64,000 nt of DNA, from NCBI RefSeq assembly GCF_988242995.1, contig NZ_OZ547043.1. The stretch is one strand, 5' to 3'. A program made the translations under genes and the position numbers. Shown in pieces: positions 6,260 through 27,463 of this stretch. Under the pieces are notes generated by a model. That model did not search any database. It was not told the DNA's origin and was given only the letters and a program-made list of their open reading frames with translations. The first letter of the stretch is position 1. Every line of letters begins with the position of its first letter.

Positions 6260-7177
6260 TTAGCTCACCAATTGCCACTGCCTTTTTTCCATCACTGGAG
6301 AACTAATCACTGACATTAACAACTCTTTCACTGCCTGTGCCTGTGGCGATAAGTTCGCTCTGGCGGGTAAATTTAATGACAAAGAGAGACTCATTGAAGG
6401 CGTGGTAATGCGTGACATCCACCCATTTACTGCGCCACATAACGAACGCGCGGCCGATTCGGGTAATACTGCAACGCCCATGCCGCTGGCAATCGCTGCG
6501 GTAAGCGTGGCAATAGACTCAATTTCACCAATAACTTTTGCCGTGAGTCGCCGTAGGGAAAAAGCCTCATCAACACGAAGTCTAACAGCGCTGTAATCAC
6601 TGGGGAGAAAGAGGTTCATTTTCGCAATAGCATTCACATCAACGCTTTGCCCCGGGCAATCTTGAGTTCCTACCAGAAAAAGATCTTCTTTCAGCAAAGC
6701 CTGACTGGATACACCAGCCACAGGGGAATGCTCATAAATCACCGCCATATCGAGTTGGTGATTTATCAATTTTTCGTTAAGCACTGCACCACTATTTTCA
6801 TGAAGATAGATAACGATCTCCGGAAATTCAGCGCGAACCGCCTGTAATAAGGGCATGGTGATGGATGACGCAGCGGTTCCTGGTGCAAAGCCAATCGAGA
6901 CTTGCCCCGATAATGCCTGACCAACGTTATGCACCGCCAGTTGGGCCTGTTCACACTGACGTAAAATGGCCCGCGCATGGGTATAGAGAATTTTTCCGGC
7001 GTCTGTTGGCGTAACGCCCCGCTTTGTACGGATCAAAAGTTGTTGATTTAACTCACCTTCCAGTGTGGCAACCTGCTGGCTGAGCGCTGGTTGTGCGATA
7101 TGCAATACTTCAGCAGCCTGGGTCAGGCTACCAATATCTACAATTTTTACGAAGTATTTCAGGCGTCTGAAGTTCAT
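6260..7177 (-). CDS. nac: LysR-family nitrogen assimilation regulator Nac
   Basis: ORF 6260..7207; start placed at MNFRRLKYFVKIVDIGSLTQAAEVLHIAQPALSQQV (305 aa). Confidence 0.9.
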   Translation of the reverse strand: MNFRRLKYFVKIVDIGSLTQAAEVLHIAQPALSQQVATLEGELNQQLLIRTKRGVTPTDAGKILYTHARAILRQCEQAQLAVHNVGQALSGQVSIGFAPGTAASSITMPLLQAVRAEFPEIVIYLHENSGAVLNEKLINHQLDMAVIYEHSPVAGVSSQALLKEDLFLVGTQDCPGQSVDVNAIAKMNLFLPSDYSAVRLRVDEAFSLRRLTAKVIGEIESIATLTAAIASGMGVAVLPESAARSLCGAVNGWMSRITTPSMSLSLSLNLPARANLSPQAQAVKELLMSVISSPVMEKRQWQLVS

Positions 7178-7503
7178 GTTGCCTCCGGTTTTTAAGAATC
7201 GGCCCAAGTGCCGCCATTACTTACAACCAGAAAGCAAGATGCTTGCCAGTTCTATTTTGGCGTTGATGCGCAAGCTAACCAACTGTCAAATAAAAGATTA
7301 TGATAGATTCGTCATTGGCCCTTTTTATCAGCAGTCGCATTCACCTGCCCTATAAAAGGAGGGTATGCACCACGATGGTTCATTACACAATAAGATTGAA
7401 AGCTCACCACTTTGTTGAAATTGGCAGCAAACAAACAAAAAAATACATTTCACCCTTTGACATCACCATGCACTGCCATTAATATGCGCCCCGTTCACAC
7501 GAT

Positions 7504-7579
7504 TCCTCTGTAGTTCAGTCGGTAGAACGGCGGACTGTTAATCCGTATGTCACTGGTTCGAGTCCAGTCAGAGGAGCCA
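7504..7579 (+). tRNA. asnV: tRNA-Asn
   Basis: 76 nt identical to asnU copy. Confidence 0.95.
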
Positions 7580-7587
7580 AATTCAAA

Positions 7588-7615
7588 AAAAGCCTGCTTT
7601 CGAGCAGGCTTTTTA
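7588..7615 (+). terminator. rho-independent terminator after asnV
   Basis: aaagcctgct / agcaggcttt hairpin followed by T-run. Confidence 0.6.
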
Positions 7616-7635
7616 CTTTCTAATTACCAACGCTC

Positions 7636-8568
7636 TTAAAACATCTGTCTTGAACCAGAACTAATTTGCACAGGCATTCCCGATCGACGTTGCAACGCAG
7701 CATTTGCGCGATTTACATCAACTTCTTGCCCGTTGATAAACGCCCGCAAAGATGGGGTTACCGGCAATGGCACTTTTCGGTCAGACTCATATTCTGCACG
7801 ATTGCGCGACAGCGGCTCATGAACTTCCAGCCACTTTGAACCATCCGGTTCCGTTGTGTATTTCACTGGCTGATCAATAATTTGTACACGAGTGCCTACA
7901 GGAACATTATCAAACAGATATTTGATATCGTCATTGCGCAGACGAATACAGCCCTGACTTACCCGGAGCCCAATACCAAAATTGGCATTGGTACCGTGGA
8001 TGGCATACAACCTGCCAATATAAATCGCGTACAGCCCCATGGGGTTATCGGGCCCCGCAGGAACAAATGCGGGCAAACTCTCCCCTCGTTTCGCATATTC
8101 GCGCCGGGTGTTCGGCGTTGGCGTCCAGGTTGGTGCTTCTTGTTTACGTTCAACGGTAGTCACCCAGTTACGCGGGGTTTCTCGCCCAGCCTGGCCGATA
8201 CCAATAGGAAAGACTTCCACTGTGTTACTGTCTGGCGGATAGTAATAAAGACGCATTTCAGCGACGTTAACCACAATCCCTTTACGAACAGTGGCGGGCA
8301 AAATCAGTTGCTGCGGAATGGTGAGTTGTGAGCCAGGCTTCGGCAAAAAAACATCAGCGCCCGGATTCGCTTCCAGCATATTACTTAACCCTTGCCCGTA
8401 TTGTGCGGCAAAAGTCTCCAGCGGCTGAGTATTGTGATCAGGAACAGTTACAGTAAGCGACTGCCCCACTAAACGGCTACCCTCTGGAGGTAATGGATAA
8501 GTTACCGCCAGGCTATTTTGGCTGGCAAAAAGCAGAGCAAATGAGCAAAGAATATTTACACGACGCAT
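7636..8568 (-). CDS. ldtA: L,D-transpeptidase (YkuD/ErfK family)
   Basis: 310 aa with signal peptide ([21 protein letters not shown]) and YkuD-type catalytic region (HGT...GC). Confidence 0.85.
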
Positions 8569-8632
8569 CATGTCCCTTTCCTAAGTCGCGAATACTATCC
8601 GATAAGTATAGCTTTTATCAGACTTTTCGTTT

Positions 8633-9712
8633 TTAGCTGTTCAAATCAGAAGTCGTATTCCCCGGTAGAACAATATTACTGGCAGCAAGTTCGCCCATGT
8701 TGTTGTATATCGCACAAGCAGCTTCGATGATGGGCATCGCCAGAGCTGCACCACTCCCCTCACCTAAACGCATATCCATATTGAGATAAGGCTCCAGCCC
8801 CAAATGCGAGAGCGCTATACGCGCGCCTTTTTCTACCGACAAGTGAGAAGGAATGAGATACGGTTTGATTGCAGGAGACATCTGGCAGGCTGCGAGCGCA
8901 GCAGCATAAGAAAGAAATCCATCCAGCAACACGGGTAAACCGCAGGAAGCAGCACCTAACATCACTCCAGCTATTCCGACCAAATCAAATCCACCCACTT
9001 TTGCCAGGACATCAATACCATCCTGAGGATTTGGTTGATTCAACGTAATCGCCCGACGCACAACATCAATTTTATTAGCCAGTTTATCTGTCGGCAGGTT
9101 TGCGCCAATCCCAACCACTTCTTCAGGATCCCGGCCAGTGATTGTGCTGACTATTGCTGCTGCCGGTGTCGTGTTTGCCATCCCCAGTTCACCTACACCA
9201 AACAGCGTGACACCGTTTTTTGCCAGCTCCTGCGTATAACATATGACGTCCAAAAGCAACTTTTCAGCCTGACGGCGACTCATTGCCGGAGCTGAAGCAA
9301 TATTGCCGCTACCTCGTGCGACACGCATGTTGATAAGCCTGGGGATAGGCTCAGCAGTATCAATACCAACATCAATTACGTGGACGTTAGCGCCCGCTTG
9401 TTCTGCCAGCACACACACGCCGGTTGTTCCACGGGTCATATTTTCAGCCTGTATGGCTGTCACTTCTTTTGGAGAAATAGCGACCCCTTCCTCCCAGACG
9501 CCGTGATCGGCACACATAACCAGTACCGCTTTTTTGCCCACATGCGGTATGCCATTCAACCCCGGCATTCCTGCCAGTTGTATGGCAAGCGCCTCCAGCT
9601 TTCCCAGGCTACCAACAGGTTTGAGTAACCCGTCAATATGCCGTTGTGCACGCGACATAGCGGCAGAATCGATGGCTGGGATCGTATTCAGTAAATCGGC
9701 AAGTATTTGCAT
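8633..9712 (-). CDS. cobT: nicotinate-nucleotide--dimethylbenzimidazole phosphoribosyltransferase
   Basis: 359 aa, [32 protein letters not shown]... Confidence 0.9.
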
Positions 9713-9723
9713 GTCACGTCTCT

Positions 9724-10467
9724 TTATAGCAGTGCCAGCAGGAAGACCAGTTCACCAAGCTCTATGGCTGCTCCCAGCGTATCGCCCGTTTGCCCGCCCA
9801 GCGTACGTTTGAGAAGCTGACCGAGGATGAAAATCGCCACCATCGTCACCACCATAGCAGCCACACCATGCATACCCGGCAATAATACGGCAGCAAAAAT
9901 AGCGGCTAAGCCGAGTGTGACGCAGGTTTGTCGCCCATCAATTTTGCCAATGAACACATTGCCAAGCCCTTCTTCCCGCGCATAACGATGACGATACATC
10001 AATAATGCGGCAGTCCCGCGGCTGACCGCACATGCTGCCGCCAGCGATGCAAGGATCGATTCGCCACGCAGAGCCAACTCGCTTAACACCAGAATCTTTG
10101 CCAGTACCACAAAAATCAATGCCAGACCGCCGTGGGTGCCTAAACGGCTATCACGCATGATTTCCAACATGCGATCGCGGCTACGTGCAGAAAATACGCC
10201 ATCACAGGTATCAGCGAGGCCGTCCAGATGGAATCCCCCGGTCATCAGCACCAGCACAAGCACGCTAAACAGTGCCGCCAGTGGTGCGCCACACCATGCC
10301 TGCAGCACCATGAAGACCAGCCCGCTAATCGCGCCAAGCAATAATCCAATCAAAGGAAAAGTAATAATACCGCGAGAATAATGCTCGAAATCCAGTCCCT
10401 GGGACCAGCGACGCGGTACAGGCAGACGCGTAATAAATGAGAGCATCGCCCAAAATAATTTACTCAT
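9724..10467 (-). CDS. cobS: cobalamin (5'-phosphate) synthase
   Basis: ORF 9724..10503; start at [18 protein letters not shown]; polytopic membrane protein; overlaps cobU stop. Confidence 0.85.
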
Positions 10468-18957: not shown

Positions 18958-20600
18958 GATTTTCATGCCAGTGGACTCATTACCCTCCGCCTAAGTAGTT
19001 CAAGTCCGGCTCGACCATACATCTGGCGTATCAGCACCTTCAGGCGATTTACATGACCTTCGACAACACCAGTACTCCAGCGACTGCTGATTGCCTCACA
19101 TATAGCCGCAGCATCAGCTTCCATCCCCGCAGCTACGCACCGAAGTTCTGCTGAGCCGCTTTCGTGGACCCGAGTGAACCAGCTGCTTAGCTGTGATTTA
19201 TTTTAGGTTTTCAGAATACGGTAGAACTCGAGTACCAGTTGCTGCGCTATTTTCAACTCCGGTTCTTTTTCACACATCAGACTAATAAATCGGAAAGCAT
19301 AATTTTCTTCACCCCTGATTATTCTCCAGGGCATCAACCAGCGGCTTACCCGGGACACTGAAGGAAGTCTTGCGGCAGTAGTAACCGGTGGGATCCAGCC
19401 TTTACGCCATTTGGCAACAGCATCCCTGACGATGGTTTCACTGCCTGTAACCCCCCTGGCCACCATTTCCCGCCATATCCGGCCGGAGTTATAATTACCA
19501 CATTCTCGTTGCTCTTTTAACCACTCCCTCCATGGGTCCAGAAGCCCTCGCTTTGGAGGCCTAGTTGACATTTCAGGGAATGTTCCTGAACCCACCCAGC
19601 GACTGACTGTCACTCGCGACAGGCCTGTAATACGGGATATTTCCCTGAAACTACATCCCTTGTTATGCAGGGCCATAACCTCTGTCCAACGCTGATGCCG
19701 TTTTTTGCGGATGTGCTGTTTAAGGCGTTCCAGACGACGGAGCGATGCTACAGGCACAGATATTTCTGGCTCAGGTGATTTCTTCAGTGATAACTCTCTG
19801 ACAACAAGACGTATCAGAGGCATATGTCTGTACATCATTCGTTCAGGCTCATCACCAATATTTTTTAGCAGGTGCCATCGATCGGCCACCTGTCTGGCCT
19901 GAGGTGCACCTTCACGTGCTGCTGTCGCATAGACTCCACTGCGATCACGCGAGACAACCTGTATTTCCGGATATTTTCTGAACCAGGTCGCCAGCGTACG
20001 CTGATCACGGCCGGGAAGCAGGACGAGGGGACGGTGAGTATCAAGATTGACTATTAACATACCGCAGCAGTGGCCCCGATGCCACGCCCACTCATCAATA
20101 CCGACATGAGGCGCGCCTGACTGTTTCGTCTCCGGGGTATTGATAACCCTGCGAAGAAGAGTATCAGCACTGCAACGGAGACCCGCTGCCGTTGCAGCCC
20201 GTTTTCCAGCCTCACCTCCAGCTATTAATCCCAGTTGACGTTGTAAATTTTGTAACGCCTGTGAAGACTGCTGGTGTGAACCGGCGAAGGGAGCAAGCGA
20301 CTCGGCAAAAATTTTACGTGAACAAGCCGGGTTACGGCAGTACCAGTGGCGGACGGAAAATACAAGCCATAGCGTCTGCCCTGAGCAGGGTAGATGCTGT
20401 ATCCGGCGCCGACGACAACTATGAACAGAGTCGCTACGCTTAAAGCATTCAGGACATTGTGCTGTTTTGCGTTTTCCGTGGAGATGGAGGGTTATACCGT
20501 CAGAGCTAATAATTTGTCGACTGCATCGCCATCCGCAAGGTAACTGTAGAAGTGTCTTAAGAGAGTGCATTGCGTTGCCCATAACTTAAAACAGCTTAGA
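18958..20600 (-). mobile_element. ISL3-family element with disrupted transposase (boundaries approximate)
   Basis: Transposase reading frame broken near 19200; no terminal repeats identified by eye. Confidence 0.4.
19203..20582 (-). CDS. ISL3-family-like transposase (N-terminal and central part)
   Basis: 459-aa ORF with Cys-rich zinc-finger region, GIDEWAWHRGH...LIVNLDTHRPLVLL DDE-like core and VADRWHLLKN; the conserved ISL3 C-terminal motif (STGVVEGHVNRLKVLIRQMYGRAGLELLRRRV) lies in another frame at 18960..19200. Confidence 0.55.
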   Translation of the reverse strand: MGNAMHSLKTLLQLPCGWRCSRQIISSDGITLHLHGKRKTAQCPECFKRSDSVHSCRRRRIQHLPCSGQTLWLVFSVRHWYCRNPACSRKIFAESLAPFAGSHQQSSQALQNLQRQLGLIAGGEAGKRAATAAGLRCSADTLLRRVINTPETKQSGAPHVGIDEWAWHRGHCCGMLIVNLDTHRPLVLLPGRDQRTLATWFRKYPEIQVVSRDRSGVYATAAREGAPQARQVADRWHLLKNIGDEPERMMYRHMPLIRLVVRELSLKKSPEPEISVPVASLRRLERLKQHIRKKRHQRWTEVMALHNKGCSFREISRITGLSRVTVSRWVGSGTFPEMSTRPPKRGLLDPWREWLKEQRECGNYNSGRIWREMVARGVTGSETIVRDAVAKWRKGWIPPVTTAARLPSVSRVSRWLMPWRIIRGEENYAFRFISLMCEKEPELKIAQQLVLEFYRILKT

Positions 20601-20865: not shown

Positions 20866-21276
20866 TCAGTTCCTATCCTTCCAGTTGCCTTCCTGCAGCC
20901 CCCCCTCCCTGCTGTATACCCCGGTACCACAACGCGGGCAGCACTTTTCTCCTTCATAATCTTCGTCACACATCACACAAAACCACTTTCTCACCTTCAC
21001 CGTATAATCCGGAACCGTCATACCCTGCAGATGCAAACGACGGGCCTCTTTCTCTGCCGGGTCAAGCCAGGTGCATCGCAGCAGGATTTTCTCAGCGACA
21101 GTCATCTGGTCATGTTCAAACCACGGTGGTTGTCCGTCATTGCCCCGCTGAAGTGTTAACGGGCATCCACAGGACACACAGCACAAAACGTCCTGGCGGT
21201 TGTGCTTCGCTGCTTCTTTCGCCGTAACAAAATGGCCTTTGCTGTCATTCGCCATATAACAGTTCAGAATTCGCAT
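20866..21276 (-). CDS. Cys-rich zinc-ribbon protein (paralog 2)
   Basis: Start at MRILNCYMANDSKGH preceded by AGGAGG; CxxC...PWFEH...CxxC...CxxC pattern shared with upstream gene. Confidence 0.5.
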   Translation of the reverse strand: MRILNCYMANDSKGHFVTAKEAAKHNRQDVLCCVSCGCPLTLQRGNDGQPPWFEHDQMTVAEKILLRCTWLDPAEKEARRLHLQGMTVPDYTVKVRKWFCVMCDEDYEGEKCCPRCGTGVYSREGGLQEGNWKDRN

Positions 21277-21671
21277 ATTTCCTCCTGAGTTGTCCGGGGA
21301 ATACTGAATCCTCCGGTCTGGCAGTGTGTGCAGTACCGCTCCCCATAATAATCGTGGTGACATTGTCTGCAGTGCCAGCTGGCTTTACGCACCACGGGTA
21401 AGGCATCCGGTACGAATTGCTGCAGACGTTTAATCAACTGTATTTCTCTGCGCTCCGGCCTGACATAAGGGCACTGTTGACCGTGCTCTGTCAGCCTGTC
21501 GTCAGTGTGTTCAAACCAGGGAAGTTCAGTGTCGTATTGCGGATGGTATCTGAGTGCACTGCCACACAAGTGGCAGGTGTAGTTAGCATAAGGTGCGGCC
21601 TGTGCAGTACGGGCGCCCGTCAGACGTCCGTTGCCATCAAGAGCGATAAAGGATTTTGCGTACATAGTCAT
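21264..21671 (-). CDS. Cys-rich zinc-ribbon protein (paralog 1)
   Basis: 135 aa; CHLCGSAL...PWFEH...CRQCHHDYYGERYCTHCQTG; overlaps the downstream paralog by 13 nt. Confidence 0.5.
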   Translation of the reverse strand: MTMYAKSFIALDGNGRLTGARTAQAAPYANYTCHLCGSALRYHPQYDTELPWFEHTDDRLTEHGQQCPYVRPERREIQLIKRLQQFVPDALPVVRKASWHCRQCHHDYYGERYCTHCQTGGFSIPRTTQEEICEF

Positions 21672-21924
21672 ATTCCTCAGCCGCCAGACGACACGCAGGC
21701 AACAGCCGTCCCGGTACGGGCAGCGTGGTCAGGGTGTGAATGGCGGTTCAGTTAAAATCTGGACTGGAGTTTGGGTAAAGCAGGCTGGTTGCTGTTACAG
21801 CACTGTGGTTGTCACACAATGGAACACTGACGTAAAAAACAGTCAGTGGGCGAGTGGATACATCGTTGCCGCCAGACAACAACCCATACTTTTGGTTTGC
21901 CGGATATTGGCGCGCCAGTCGTGC

Positions 21925-22494
21925 TCAACTCCGGCTACAGCCAAAATTGCGCTCACCGGTGCAGTGAGCTTTGGTATGTTCCTTCGCCAGATAGTCAGCA
22001 CGTTCCAGCACCTGCTGAAAGCCAGTGTCATCATCGCGTTCCAGCCACACCGCCGGCCAGGCCGGAAAATGCACCAGCGTGGCATGGCACCCGACATCCA
22101 CTCCCAGGGCACTGCACCACGCCTGTTTAATCATCCCGGCCAGTGATCCCGGAGCACGGTAATCACCGGCACGACACCAGGTATCCCGGTTAACCAGCAG
22201 CATCAGGTGATAGTGTTTTTTACCTTTGCACTCCCCAAACTCCCGGGCCCAGACGTAATGCAGGGTGGTGGGATGCACGCGTTTACCTTCCCGATGCTTA
22301 CGTTTCTGGTAAGCGTCGATTCGGGCTTTCAGGGCATTGATGAAGCGGGATATCACAGCTGCGTCCGTTGCTGCCGGTACATCCGGGAAACGCAGGTCAA
22401 CCCGCAATGCCGTCAGGCGGGGATGAACATTCAGTGCGTGCCGCACCGTCTCACGAATACGTTGCTGCCAGAAGGGGTTGTATTTGTAGGTCAT
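21925..22494 (-). CDS. YfjJ/YagK-like (inovirus Gp2-type) prophage protein
   Basis: Start at MTYKYNPFWQQRIRETV with GGAG RBS; resembles YagK/YfjJ family of CP4-type prophages (recognition from memory). Confidence 0.55.
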   Translation of the reverse strand: MTYKYNPFWQQRIRETVRHALNVHPRLTALRVDLRFPDVPAATDAAVISRFINALKARIDAYQKRKHREGKRVHPTTLHYVWAREFGECKGKKHYHLMLLVNRDTWCRAGDYRAPGSLAGMIKQAWCSALGVDVGCHATLVHFPAWPAVWLERDDDTGFQQVLERADYLAKEHTKAHCTGERNFGCSRS

Positions 22495-22690
22495 GGTTAA
22501 ATCTCCGTATGGTTCATACGGAATAGCCACGTCGTAAAAAATGCGCAGAGTCCCTGAAGTGACCTCCGGCAGGACACTGTCTCAGGCACTCTGTGATAAC
22601 CCGAACGGTCGTCTCCGGACTGACGGTTGAATTTTCAGCGTTGTTTTTTTAATGTAAAAAACCGGTTACGGGTAAGGCTGTGAGGAGGGA

Positions 22691-22894
22691 GTGATGGTGA
22701 TACGCAAAAAGAAGTGCAGGGACTGTGGAAACGCGATTACTCATAATACAGTGTGTTGCCCGTATTGTGGTTCTGTCGACCCCTTCGGCTATTACCGGAA
22801 TACAGACCGTATCGTTACCATACTGCTGGCACTGATTATTGTGGTCCTGCTGACTACTGTCAGCGTCAGTGTGTATATACTGTGTAGCTGGTGA
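22691..22894 (+). CDS. small zinc-ribbon protein with C-terminal transmembrane helix
   Basis: 67 aa; CRDCGN...CPYCGS followed by hydrophobic ILLALIIVVLLTTVSVSVYIL. Confidence 0.4.
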   Translation: MMVIRKKKCRDCGNAITHNTVCCPYCGSVDPFGYYRNTDRIVTILLALIIVVLLTTVSVSVYILCSW

Positions 22895-23250
22895 GATAAC
22901 GGTTCATGTATCCCCTGAGCTGACAGTGTACCGGGTATATTAAGCGTAACCGACAGGTTCTCCTTCATACCATATTAAATTTTTCCAGGTATTGCCGCTG
23001 CCTTATTTCGTCCCATACAGGAAAACTCGTCTGGGTTTCTGACAAATACGCGAAACTCACAGCCCCTCAATATCAACCACACGCTGTAAGCCGGTAATAC
23101 CTGAAAATCAGCCTATTACCGCCCGCGCCTCCGTTACCGAACGCTCAGGTGACCAGACTGAAGCCCAGCACGCACTCGTAAAATTTGCGGTCAGTTCCGT
23201 CAGTCAGTGGGCAACCGCAGAGTTACGGGCTTCCAGGTCCACAGGAGTGA

Positions 23251-23288: not shown

Positions 23289-24902
23289 TTATTTATTGGT
23301 GAGTACTACGTTCCATGGCAGGAGTTCGCCAACTCGGTTGGAAGGCCATTCCGGCAGTACGCTCAGAATATGGCGCAGATACGCTTCCGGATCGATACCG
23401 TTCAGACGGCAGGTGCCGATCAGCCCGTACAGCAGTGCACCACGCTCGCCGCCGTGATCGCTACCGAAGAACACGTAATTTTTCTTTCCGAGACAGACTG
23501 CACGAAGCGCTCTTTCCGCTGTGTTATTGTCCGCCTCCGCCAGACCGTCATCACAGAAGTTGCACAACGCAACCCAGTGCTTCCTGATATACCGGAACGC
23601 ATCTCTCAGACGGCATTTTTTCGATAACGTGTGTTCTTTCTCCTGCATCAGCTTATACAGGGAAGTCAGTAGCGGTTTACTCTGCATTTGCCTGACCGCC
23701 AGGCGTTCAGACACCGGCAACCCGCGTATTTCGTGCTCAATGGCGTACAGTTCACCGATTAGTTTCAGTGCTTCTTCCGCCGTCGCGCTTTTGGTACTGA
23801 TATATACATCGTGGATTTTGCGCCGTGCATGAGCCCAGCATCCTGCTTCCGTCAACGCGCCGCCTTCACGTTCGGCACTGAACAGCCGATCGTAACCTGC
23901 GAACGCATCTGCCTGCAGGATACCCCGGAAGGGACGAAGGTGTTGCTCCGGATGTTTACCCTGATGGTCCGGTGAGTAGGCGAACCAGACCGCCGGAGGT
24001 TCTGGCGAACCGGCATTTCGGTCATCCCGGACATACGTCCAGATATATCCTGTTTTCGCCTTCTTCCTGCCCGGTGCCAGTACTTTTACTGGTGTGTCAT
24101 CAGTGTGAACCTTGCGGGTGTTCATCACATAACTGTACAGGGCATCATTCAGCGGAGTCATTAACTGGCAGCACGCATCAACCCAGTTGGAGAGTAAGGC
24201 ACGGCTCAGTTCGACACCCTGGCGGGCAAAGATTTCACTCTGACGATACAGTGGCAGATGTTCGCAGTATTTTCCCGTTAACACGCGGGCAAGTAACTCC
24301 GGGCCCGCGATACCACGCTCTATCGGACGGGATGGTGCCGGTGCTTCAACGATGCAGTCACATTTTGTACAGGCTTTTTTTACCCGTTCTGTGCGGATCA
24401 CTTTCAGGGCGCTGCTCACCAGTTCCAGTTGTTCTGCACTGACTTCCCCCAGATAATCCAGCTCACCGCCACACTCCGGGCAACAGCTTTCTTCAGGCTC
24501 CAGGCGGTTTATTTCGCGGGGCAGAAGCTCCGGTAACGGACGACGATGGCGTGACTGTCGCAACTGGCGGGGAACCTGCGGGTCATCCTCTCGCCCACTG
24601 TAACGATCGCTGTCCTGTTCGCGTTGCTTCAGCAGGGCCTCAGCCTGTTCAACTTCACGACGCAGTTTTTCAGAACGGGTACCGAACAGCATCCGGCGCA
24701 GTTTTTCTATCTGAGCCCGCAGATGTTCTATTTCCCGTTCATCTTCTTCGATCTTTTCTTCGGCACGTGCCAGCACAGAACGCAGGAAGGCCTCCGTCTC
24801 TTCAACCAGACTCAGTTGTTGGTCTTTCTGACGGAGGGCTTCAGCCTGCTCAGAGAGCAACCTTTCCAGCTCTGCGATGCGAATGAGGTATTTCTGACTC
24901 AT
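23289..24902 (-). CDS. IS66-family transposase TnpC
   Basis: 537 aa; N-terminal coiled coil, CPECGG zinc motif, DDE region; C-terminus LYGLIGTCRLNGIDPEAYLRHILSVLPEWPSNRVGELLPWNVVLTNK. Confidence 0.85.
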   Translation of the reverse strand: MSQKYLIRIAELERLLSEQAEALRQKDQQLSLVEETEAFLRSVLARAEEKIEEDEREIEHLRAQIEKLRRMLFGTRSEKLRREVEQAEALLKQREQDSDRYSGREDDPQVPRQLRQSRHRRPLPELLPREINRLEPEESCCPECGGELDYLGEVSAEQLELVSSALKVIRTERVKKACTKCDCIVEAPAPSRPIERGIAGPELLARVLTGKYCEHLPLYRQSEIFARQGVELSRALLSNWVDACCQLMTPLNDALYSYVMNTRKVHTDDTPVKVLAPGRKKAKTGYIWTYVRDDRNAGSPEPPAVWFAYSPDHQGKHPEQHLRPFRGILQADAFAGYDRLFSAEREGGALTEAGCWAHARRKIHDVYISTKSATAEEALKLIGELYAIEHEIRGLPVSERLAVRQMQSKPLLTSLYKLMQEKEHTLSKKCRLRDAFRYIRKHWVALCNFCDDGLAEADNNTAERALRAVCLGKKNYVFFGSDHGGERGALLYGLIGTCRLNGIDPEAYLRHILSVLPEWPSNRVGELLPWNVVLTNK

Positions 24903-24932
24903 GACCGTTTTTATAATGCGGTCAGGAGTTTT

Positions 24933-25283
24933 TTACAACATTGTCAGTGAGTTAAGGCGGGATGTTTTTGGCTGACGCCAGTCCAGCTTATCGAGGAGCA
25001 TTACCAGTTGCGAACGGGTAATGGATACCTTGCCGTCACGTACCGCAGGCCAGATAAACTGGCCTTCCTCCAGGCGTTTGGTGAACAGGCACAGACCATC
25101 AGCATCAGCCCAAAGAATTTTAACGGTGTCACCCCGTCGGCCACGGAAGATAAACAGGTGGCCGGAGAAGGGATTATCATTCAGCACATGTTGTACCTGT
25201 TCTCCCAGTCCGTTGAAGGATTTACGCATATCGGTAACGCCGGCAACGAGCCAGATACGGGTACCTGATGGGAGTGAAATCAT
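24933..25283 (-). CDS. IS66 Orf2 (TnpB)
   Basis: 116 aa MISLPSGTRIWLVAGVTDMRKSFNGLGEQV..., typical IS66 orf2. Confidence 0.85.
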   Translation of the reverse strand: MISLPSGTRIWLVAGVTDMRKSFNGLGEQVQHVLNDNPFSGHLFIFRGRRGDTVKILWADADGLCLFTKRLEEGQFIWPAVRDGKVSITRSQLVMLLDKLDWRQPKTSRLNSLTML

Positions 25284-25705
25284 CTTCCCCTCCCGCTCAG
25301 TTCGCGGATCAACACCGTGAGCAGCTCTGGCGATGGATTTTCCAGCGTCATGTTACCGTGACGGAACTCCACCTTGCAGGAACTGGCACTGACTCTGGTC
25401 TGAGTGGAAGTGGATAAAGACGGCGCAATGGCCGCCACAGGTTTTTTCTGCTCATCCGGCGTTATTTCTACAGGTAATAATTCAACGCCAGTGTCAGAAG
25501 AGGTCGTTACCGGAAGACGCCGCGAAACACGCCCTTCGTTCTGCCAGAGCCTGAGCCATTTGAAAATAACATTATCATTGACGCCATTTTCACGTGCAAT
25601 CTGTGCAACACAAGCTCCAGGTTGTGATGCCAGTTCCACCATACGAAGTTTGAATTCATTCGAATAGTTTTTACGAGGTTCTTTTCGCCAGTCCTGTAAT
25701 TCCAT
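25280..25705 (-). CDS. IS66 Orf1 (TnpA, HTH)
   Basis: 141 aa; overlaps orf2 start by 4 nt. Confidence 0.8.
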   Translation of the reverse strand: MELQDWRKEPRKNYSNEFKLRMVELASQPGACVAQIARENGVNDNVIFKWLRLWQNEGRVSRRLPVTTSSDTGVELLPVEITPDEQKKPVAAIAPSLSTSTQTRVSASSCKVEFRHGNMTLENPSPELLTVLIRELSGRGR

Positions 25706-26767: not shown

Positions 26768-26860
26768 TTTTTAACCACTAACCCTTCGCCCACAGCAGAC
26801 GCAATCTCCGGCCTGCCGGCGGCGCTCTGCTGCCTGTTATCCCCCGTGAGGAATATGAAA

Positions 26861-27463
26861 ATGAAACAACAGTATCAGACCCGTTACGAGCTGCTCCATG
26901 AAAACTACCAGAAATGGCTGACCGGCTTCACCCGGCACGCCGTATCATGGGGCGTGTGTCATCCGAATATCTACTATTTCCATAATCTGACGCCCGGGTG
27001 GGTGTCATTCAATGGCGAAAAACCGGAGATTGCCATCGTTCCCCAGAGTCTGCACCGGCTGATTTATGGTCCGGACAAACGGAGCTCCCCGTCCCTAGAT
27101 GATGATCTGGTGGTGAATTTATGCACCAGCGAACACCTGCTGGTTCATCATCCGATGCTGGAAGGGATCCTGCTGTCTGAATGTGAACGCCTGAAGCAAC
27201 ATTCTCTGGCAAACAAACTGATCAGCCTCTTCCGTCAGTTTGGCGGCACGGAGTTACGTCTCAAACTGGTCTGGCTCTGCTGGCTTGACTTAATGACCGG
27301 AAACAGCCTTGACGACTGGACGAAAAACCTGAAACACAAATCAGAAAAAGATCTGGAGCAATGGATCATTGCACGTCAGGGTCAGAGTGAACCACTGACA
27401 AATCTGATGGATCAGTACGTGCTTATGGCATACCGTACATCGGTTGATGCCGCTCACAGTTGA
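26861..27463 (+). CDS. hypothetical protein
   Basis: About 200 aa ORF downstream of alpA-like gene with GAGGAA RBS; no recognisable motif. Confidence 0.4.
   Translation: MKQQYQTRYELLHENYQKWLTGFTRHAVSWGVCHPNIYYFHNLTPGWVSFNGEKPEIAIVPQSLHRLIYGPDKRSSPSLDDDLVVNLCTSEHLLVHHPMLEGILLSECERLKQHSLANKLISLFRQFGGTELRLKLVWLCWLDLMTGNSLDDWTKNLKHKSEKDLEQWIIARQGQSEPLTNLMDQYVLMAYRTSVDAAHS

Follow-up and report, generated by a model that had tools for sequence, protein, structure and literature searches.

Small zinc-binding proteins have been described on elements of the P4-integrase type. Examples are the late-gene activators Ogr (P2) and Delta (P4), both small zinc-finger proteins, of which Delta corresponds to Ogr duplicated in tandem. 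Here, we analysed two adjacent cysteine-rich genes, called ZnA and ZnB below, together with the YfjJ/YagK-family gene beside them, in a CP4-44-type integrative island of Escherichia coli. The genes lie on contig NZ_OZ547043.1 (RefSeq assembly GCF_988242995.1), in a stretch of 64,000 nucleotides (nt) that was analysed as a whole and is referred to as the window. Our analysis showed that such Zn genes are linked to a YfjJ-type gene in nearly every locus and that the two are sometimes fused or duplicated together, and we tentatively suggest that the Zn proteins may be partners of the YfjJ-type protein. Like Ogr and Delta, they are small, predicted zinc-binding proteins of P4-integrase-type elements. 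However, size, ligand spacing and genomic partners are all different. Neither ZnA nor ZnB matched Ogr_Delta at E <= 1, and this family was absent among the 25 of 81 families that most members of a set of 55 diverse homologs (ZnA and ZnB included) match.

CoiA is a PD-(D/E)XK nuclease that carries a small N-terminal zinc finger and has been proposed to resolve transformation D-loops (bioRxiv 10.1101/2024.02.06.579203). We found that its N-domain and the Zn proteins share the pattern C-x2-C ... aromatic-F-x-H ... C after a short beta-alpha unit. However, the Zn proteins have only about 135 amino acids (aa) and a C-terminal C4 ribbon, and no PD-(D/E)XK nuclease domain was found in them. Sub-threshold matches to CoiA_N (PF25164) were obtained for 19 of the 55 homologs (best E = 6.9e-5; for ZnB, E = 0.11 and 12.4 bits against a gathering score of 26.3), and sub-threshold matches to DUF7830 for 20 of them. 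The N-terminal domain of the Zn proteins, DUF7828, appears to be remotely CoiA_N-like.

Profile searches against the PDB gave the RNA polymerase subunit RPB9 as the best match, which was also the sole sequence-level PDB match (E = 0.004, marginal; profile positions 30-106). RPB9 and TFIIS-type proteins have two zinc modules with a linker of about 30-40 residues, and the Zn proteins are built in the same way. The match is driven largely by cysteine spacing, and we take it as an architectural resemblance and not as homology.

The neighbouring protein can be compared with gpII/gpX of inoviruses and with other rolling-circle initiators of the HUH type. Like them, YfjJ orthologs have HUH-like and YxxK motifs and match REP_ORF2-G2P; the difference is that the element of YfjJ is an integrative island and not a filamentous phage. 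The pairing of a putatively active and a putatively dead YfjJ paralog, described below, recalls gpII and gpX. Inovirus replication, as far as we know, involves no accessory zinc proteins.

The island is located between the cob/asn-tRNA region and yeeS-yeeT-cbeA-cbtA, and its segment 20600-22800 (2.2 kb) is 100% identical to the E. coli S88 chromosome. The genes of interest form a minus-strand trio in the order YagK/YfjJ-family gene, spacer, ZnA and ZnB:

21925-22494, minus strand: YfjJ/YagK-family ('inovirus Gp2 family') gene, 189 aa, WP_000221530; PF11726 (YagK_YfjJ_C), E = 9e-48
21672-21924, minus strand: yfjJ-ZnA spacer, 253 nt
21264-21665, minus strand: ZnA, 133 aa, A-type paralog; RefSeq WP_000270974, 'putative zinc ribbon protein'
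21678-21674, minus strand: GAGGA of ZnA, with ATG 21665 lying 8 nt downstream and the stop codon at 21264-21266
21264-21286, minus strand: ZnA/ZnB junction, with the ribosome-binding site and ATG of ZnB inside the 3' end of ZnA and a 13-nt overlap
20866-21276, minus strand: ZnB, 136 aa, B-type DUF7828 plus Zn_ribbon_11 protein; RefSeq WP_001221617, 'zinc-ribbon domain-containing protein'
21286-21281, minus strand: AGGAGG of ZnB, with ATG at 21276 and the stop codon TGA at 20866-20868

The initial annotation of this DNA had reported two adjacent minus-strand genes overlapping by 13 nt and a YfjJ/YagK-like gene just upstream of them; the open reading frame (ORF) coordinates and the PF11726 match confirm both statements. 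ZnA begins with MYAKSF at ATG 21665, as in RefSeq and in all orthologs. An alternative in-frame ATG at 21671, where the ORF of the initial annotation started, lies 6 nt earlier and is unlikely to be used because it is just 2 nt from the Shine-Dalgarno sequence. The 13-nt overlap was kept in ten of the scanned loci, which are labelled L0xx (L003, L008, L011, L012, L014, L017, L019, L020, L037 and L038), and it was 10 nt in three others (L015, L025 and L027). Because the overlap is conserved across genera, it points to coupled translation of ZnA and ZnB.

ZnA and ZnB are paralogs (BLASTP, 31% identity over 125 aa, E = 3e-16), as the initial annotation had supposed, and the profile search it had called for assigned two Pfam families to both of them above the gathering scores. 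DUF7828 (PF25165) covers residues 4-89 approximately (ZnA, 107.5 bits; ZnB, 106 bits; E about 1e-31; gathering score 25.7 bits). Zn_ribbon_11 (PF11682, formerly DUF3279) covers residues 93-128 approximately (ZnA, 38 bits, 1e-9; ZnB, 64.7 bits, 6e-18; gathering score 24 bits). Thus, the window proteins are members of this two-domain family and do not differ from it. As a feature they are already known, with RefSeq-identical proteins in thousands of E. coli genomes and two existing Pfam families. Scans of ZnA and ZnB against NCBIfam, PHROGs and PADLOC gave zero matches, and in the searchable literature we found no functional study of DUF7828/Zn_ribbon_11 proteins or of YfjJ/YagK.

The initial annotation had noticed the architecture CxxC...PWFEH...CxxC...CxxC; the pattern CxxC...WFEH...C...CxxC...CxxC is real, and its occurrence goes far beyond chance. 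Nine alignment columns were invariant in the 55 homologs, namely C33, C36, F53, H55, C68, C100, C103, C113 and C116, that is, the potential metal ligands plus F53. They define two sites per protein, a CCHC site (C33, C36, H55, C68) and a C4 ribbon (C100, C103, C113, C116), at which zinc would be bound. The proteins had been described as double zinc ribbons; two metal-binding motifs are indeed present, but they are unequal, since the first belongs to a CCHC domain (DUF7828) of about 85 aa and only the second is a ribbon of the C4 type. An AlphaFold2 model built from the 55-homolog alignment had a predicted local distance difference test score (pLDDT) of 88.5 overall and above 92 across the N-domain. 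In this model the N-domain has the topology beta-beta-alpha-beta-beta-beta-alpha-alpha, and linker residues 81-100 (pLDDT 74-76) lead to a three-stranded ribbon. The charge of both proteins is near neutral, and because of this a protein-protein adaptor or a specific binder fits better than a general nucleic-acid binder.

A-type proteins are encoded by the upstream gene and begin with MYAKSF..., and B-type proteins are encoded by the downstream gene and begin with MRxLKCYLAN.... Median identity was 62% for A vs A and 66% for B vs B, but only 26% for A vs B. The nearest neighbour of each A-type sequence was another A-type sequence, and the single-copy loci held B-like genes. By these comparisons A-type and B-type are separate orthologous groups across Enterobacterales, with representatives in Klebsiella, Salmonella, Hafnia, Serratia, Mixta and Rosenbergiella, among others; therefore, their duplication is ancient and predates the spread among these genera. 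The initial annotation had read the pair as a tandem duplication, which is correct as to paralogy but does not describe a local or recent event. Both types are under purifying selection, the ratio of nonsynonymous to synonymous substitution (dN/dS) being 0.14-0.29 in the A-type and 0.10-0.22 in the B-type, so that the conservation elsewhere on which the original proposal depended was found.

The family is small. When 1.84 billion representative proteins were searched exhaustively with a profile, only 279 matched at E <= 1e-3, and many of these were fragments. Scanning a single genome of each species gave 33 loci, of which 32 were titled Enterobacterales; the scan used the B-type subset as query, and its loci are biased to B-type and singleton genes. 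The remaining locus, L006, comes from a Collinsella metagenome-assembled genome; it is a contig of only 2.2 kb and 98% identical to the E. coli gene. Genera with Zn genes include Salmonella, Klebsiella, Citrobacter, Hafnia, Serratia, Pectobacterium, Mixta, Rosenbergiella and Limnobaculum. The pair was present in 3786 of 5426 complete E. coli genomes (about 70%), at 8198 places in all, with a median of two per genome and five places on plasmids. At least 80% of the pair was covered in 2987 E. coli genomes, mostly at >=95% identity, and many E. coli copies were truncated. It is rare on plasmids, the exception being a group of Klebsiella IncFIB/HI1B megaplasmids on which the island module is present in full.

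Among the database proteins (labelled P0xxx), four look mosaic (P0023, P0039, P0041 and P0053). In these, an A-type C-terminus follows a B-type N-terminus, or the C-terminus of ZnB follows an N-terminus of a third type (MNGIKTGLGITPGEH...), which suggests recombination among several island copies within one genome.

We then defined the gene neighbourhood by clustering ORFs across loci and by profile searches for YfjJ-like proteins. A recurrent same-strand module was found, in which a YfjJ-type gene is followed by alpA and then by one or two Zn genes, with a second YfjJ-like gene (Gp2') and a DUF2913 gene each added in some loci; an alternative order is alpA, a gene for a 200-aa protein of no assigned family, YfjJ, ZnA and ZnB. 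The flanks were long enough in 29 cross-genus loci, and each of these had a YfjJ-type gene upstream of the Zn genes in the same orientation, at a distance of <=2.5 kb in 26 of them (it is farther in L021 and L026, and in L015 it is cut by the contig end). AlpA was encoded in 32 of about 37 loci. The most divergent members that could be traced (P0202, P0150, P0161 and P0183) had the same YagK_YfjJ - AlpA - Zn arrangement. In other genera alpA lies in the interval between yfjJ and the Zn genes, and in E. coli (L041) alpA and the 200-aa gene are divergent from yfjJ-ZnA-ZnB. Zn partners of YfjJ are frequent and not obligatory, because in CP4-57 of E. coli K-12 yfjJ follows alpA and yfjI (a DUF3987 protein) without Zn genes.

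The Zn genes belong to the conserved backbone of the island and stand at the edge of variable cargo, which lies downstream of them and includes type I restriction-modification (R-M) systems in about ten loci. Backbone genes on the opposite strand encode a GTPase, WYL, DUF932, antirestriction, RadC, CbeA/CbtA and DUF4942 proteins. In two compact islands (L043 and L044), a P4-type integrase lies a few kb from the Zn gene. The initial annotation had placed the genes in a prophage context; a mobile element it is, but the genes are part of an integrative-island backbone, and no copies of the pair were found in 50,697 phage records.

Beyond synteny, a link between Zn proteins and YfjJ-type proteins comes from Serratia, where a complete Zn module and a YfjJ-like domain are fused in one protein. 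Six protein clusters of 454-468 aa were found, mutually 45-52% identical, and two of the genes were located as follows:

L005, 2797-4161: Serratia Zn-YfjJ-like fusion gene
L039, 10001-11401: Serratia Zn-YfjJ-like fusion gene

The YfjJ-like domain of the fusion matched the adjacent 350-aa YagK_YfjJ protein (BLASTP, E = 7e-24), and it has no catalytic motifs, as in Gp2'. The gene order around it is AlpA - YfjJ - YfjJ-like - fusion, with two stand-alone YagK/YfjJ genes, and the fusion mirrors the ZnB - Gp2' order of other loci. A second link is that Gp2' was found behind the Zn genes at 9 of 14 tandem loci vs 0 of 15 singleton loci (Fisher's test, p = 2e-4, a value inflated by shared ancestry); examples are L003 (9493-10741), L017 (10426-11653), L037, L038 and L012, often with a DUF2913 gene next. 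As Gp2' was seen in tandem loci only, the additional Zn paralog goes along with an additional YfjJ paralog.

In the YfjJ protein of the window, the sequence HYHLML (codons 22215-22198) is an HUH-like motif, and YLAK, with its Tyr codon at 21993-21991, is a second motif. The H-x-H-hydrophobic and Y-x-x-K motifs were conserved in about 30 upstream-type YfjJ orthologs, and both were missing from Gp2', in which the His pair and the Tyr are lost. REP_ORF2-G2P matched the window protein with 25.3 bits and the L017 ortholog with 28.6 bits (gathering score 27.8). We conclude that the YfjJ/YagK neighbour is probably an HUH nickase, as predicted from these motifs, and that Gp2' would be a catalytically dead paralog of it.

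These results can be brought together in one model. ZnA and ZnB would be part of a DNA-processing module, for excision, replication or mobilisation, of CP4-type integrative islands. Its enzyme would be the adjacent YfjJ/YagK protein with the rolling-circle-nickase motifs, and its usual regulator would be AlpA. The Zn proteins would contact one or more YfjJ-type proteins, island DNA or both, and would thereby target or control nicking. Coupled translation would provide A and B in equal amounts for an A-B heterodimer, and loci with a single Zn gene would form a homodimer. That ZnA and ZnB are non-catalytic partners which target or regulate the YfjJ-type HUH protein of the island is the explanation we favour, tentatively and at somewhat less than an even chance; it builds on the domains and ligands, purifying selection, near-invariant synteny, the fusion with a YfjJ paralog and the co-duplication. 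The motifs of the YfjJ orthologs, the conserved overlap of the A and B genes, the sub-threshold CoiA_N matches and the backbone position beside variable cargo also speak for it. The initial annotation had suggested a nucleic-acid-binding regulator, which is possible for the Zn proteins; the functional link to the HUH-type YfjJ is the stronger signal.

The role of the Zn genes must be considered in view of their position, since in most genera alpA immediately precedes them and variable cargo immediately follows. This order would suit zinc-finger transcription factors, analogous to Ogr and Delta, that act downstream of AlpA and switch on island, cargo or helper genes, and so would the small, non-catalytic proteins with two zinc sites and the match to RPB9 (E = 0.004). 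However, that match is mostly Cys spacing, the charge is neutral, and neither the matches of the window proteins nor the 25 of 81 families mentioned above include one named as a DNA-binding transcription factor. The YfjJ-like fusion and the co-duplication would also be left unexplained, and we regard such a function as unlikely. AlpA activates integrase expression and excision of CP4-57, and in the annotation of K-12 it is listed as a DNA-binding transcriptional activator. As the Zn genes adjoin alpA, and in compact islands lie near the P4-type integrase, they might encode accessory factors of integrase and AlpA which serve excision at attachment (att) sites, as directionality or architectural factors, and work independently of YfjJ. 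In E. coli, including the window, alpA is nevertheless divergent and in a separate operon while the Zn pair is still with yfjJ, and the fusion partner is a YfjJ paralog and not AlpA or Int; a role of this kind seems improbable.

Small zinc-binding proteins are common in conflict systems, and the islands hold ArdB/KlcA-type antirestriction and RadC genes in the backbone and type I R-M (about ten loci), SMEK_N/CTD10-MC6-DUF2326 (L043) and abpAB/rnlAB (K-12) as cargo. The Zn proteins and the HUH protein could then be a defence or anti-defence accessory that acts on invading DNA by sensing or blocking it (phages, plasmids or restriction). Against this, the Zn genes are constant while the cargo varies, they are on the opposite strand and in another operon than the antirestriction cluster, none occurred in the phage records, and PADLOC-DB 2.0 gave 0 defence-model matches for ZnA, ZnB and YfjJ. 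We therefore give this explanation little probability, and the anti-defence role named in the initial annotation was not borne out: the proteins have no PADLOC or PHROG match and their genes lie in conserved backbone, not in variable cargo. Transcription, excision and defence roles all fit the island position, but they do not explain the fusion and the co-duplication and have no support from family, phage or defence databases. Another possibility is that the island has decayed in this E. coli lineage and that the Zn genes are relics without a function. The island is riddled with insertion sequences (IS), integrase, alpA, Gp2' and DUF2913 are not beside the Zn genes, and many E. coli copies are truncated. 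However, both ORFs are intact with good ribosome-binding sites and all nine invariant ligand columns, the pair is at least 80% covered in thousands of genomes, and the orthologs are under purifying selection, so that decay is a very unlikely explanation.

If ZnA and ZnB are indeed partners of YfjJ, a wider proposal may be made. The YfjJ-type HUH protein and ZnA/ZnB, with AlpA, might constitute an unrecognised replication or mobilisation engine of CP4-57/CP4-44-type islands, in which the zinc proteins would be specificity subunits that bring the hairpin of the origin or of the origin of transfer (oriT) to the nickase. We consider this rather doubtful at present; if true, a CoiA_N-like finger would form the basis of a new type of relaxosome or replisome accessory. 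CP4-type islands are among the commonest mobile elements of E. coli and its relatives, with virulence, metabolic and phage-defence cargo, and many pathogenicity and defence islands of E. coli have a backbone of the CP4-57/CP4-44 type. A module of HUH nickase, AlpA and zinc proteins is a concrete, testable candidate for the machinery by which such islands would replicate or transfer once excised, and the Serratia fusion hints which proteins act together. The tight Zn-YfjJ(-AlpA) module, the ancient A/B split and the Serratia fusion appear to be undescribed in the searchable literature.

Possible sites for such proteins were sought around yfjJ. One hairpin in the spacer and one promoter-like sequence upstream of the gene were recorded:

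21825-21848, no strand assigned: hairpin CACTGAC-N10-GTCAGTG, perfect 7-bp stem and 10-nt loop, in the yfjJ-ZnA spacer
22631-22658, minus strand: sigma-70-like promoter match TTTACA-16-GAAAAT upstream of yfjJ, a consensus match only

The hairpin, with 0.02 expected by chance, was also present in L040, and imperfect inverted GTCAGTG/CAGTCAG copies flank yfjJ at 22850-22872 and 23197-23217. It could be a candidate protein-binding (operator) site or nick site. A conserved hairpin downstream of YfjJ was sought in other loci: hairpins were frequent, with unrelated stems of 6-8 bp about 7 to 124 nt past the YfjJ stop in other genera, but their sequences were not conserved between genera, and E. coli L041 had none. 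The fold of the yfjJ-ZnA intergenic sequence was no more stable than that of shuffled sequence (z = -1.16). We found no promoter-like or terminator-like site on the minus strand of the spacer (21672-21924); thus, a single yfjJ-ZnA-ZnB transcript is plausible, for which the match at 22631-22658 is a candidate promoter.

The copy of the island in the window is degraded, with no integrase nearby according to the S88 annotation. Remnants of alpA, Gp2' and DUF2913 were sought beside the Zn genes and none were found, nor was an alpA remnant present in the spacer. Two IS elements border the trio:

19203-20582, minus strand: ISL3-family transposase pseudogene with an internal stop, 283 nt past ZnB
23289-25705, minus strand: complete IS66/ISEc43 (tnpA-tnpB-tnpC), inserted between the alpA operon and the yfjJ-ZnA-ZnB operon

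Some other genes of these islands were recorded. A 67-aa ORF on the plus strand (22691-22894; WP_001297900, hypothetical), transcribed away from yfjJ, codes for a protein with a CxxC...CxxC ribbon at its N-terminus and a hydrophobic helix behind the ribbon; it had only weak matches to Pfam zinc ribbons and occupies the same position in the E. coli islands L040 and L041. At 26846-27463 (plus strand), a 205-aa protein of the island backbone (cluster 'c29') without a Pfam match is encoded after alpA, as in E. coli and several other genera. The cargo of L043/L044 at 6705-10320, between the Zn gene and the P4-type integrase, comprises SMEK_N/CTD10, MC6 and DUF2326 proteins and looks like a conflict or defence cassette. 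Finally, the S88 annotation of the plus strand at about 32300-39000 of the window lists a 383-aa hypothetical protein, a GTPase family protein, a dynamin family protein (798 aa), an RdcB-family protein and a patatin-like phospholipase, and this backbone cluster may be a membrane-remodelling or defence-type cassette.

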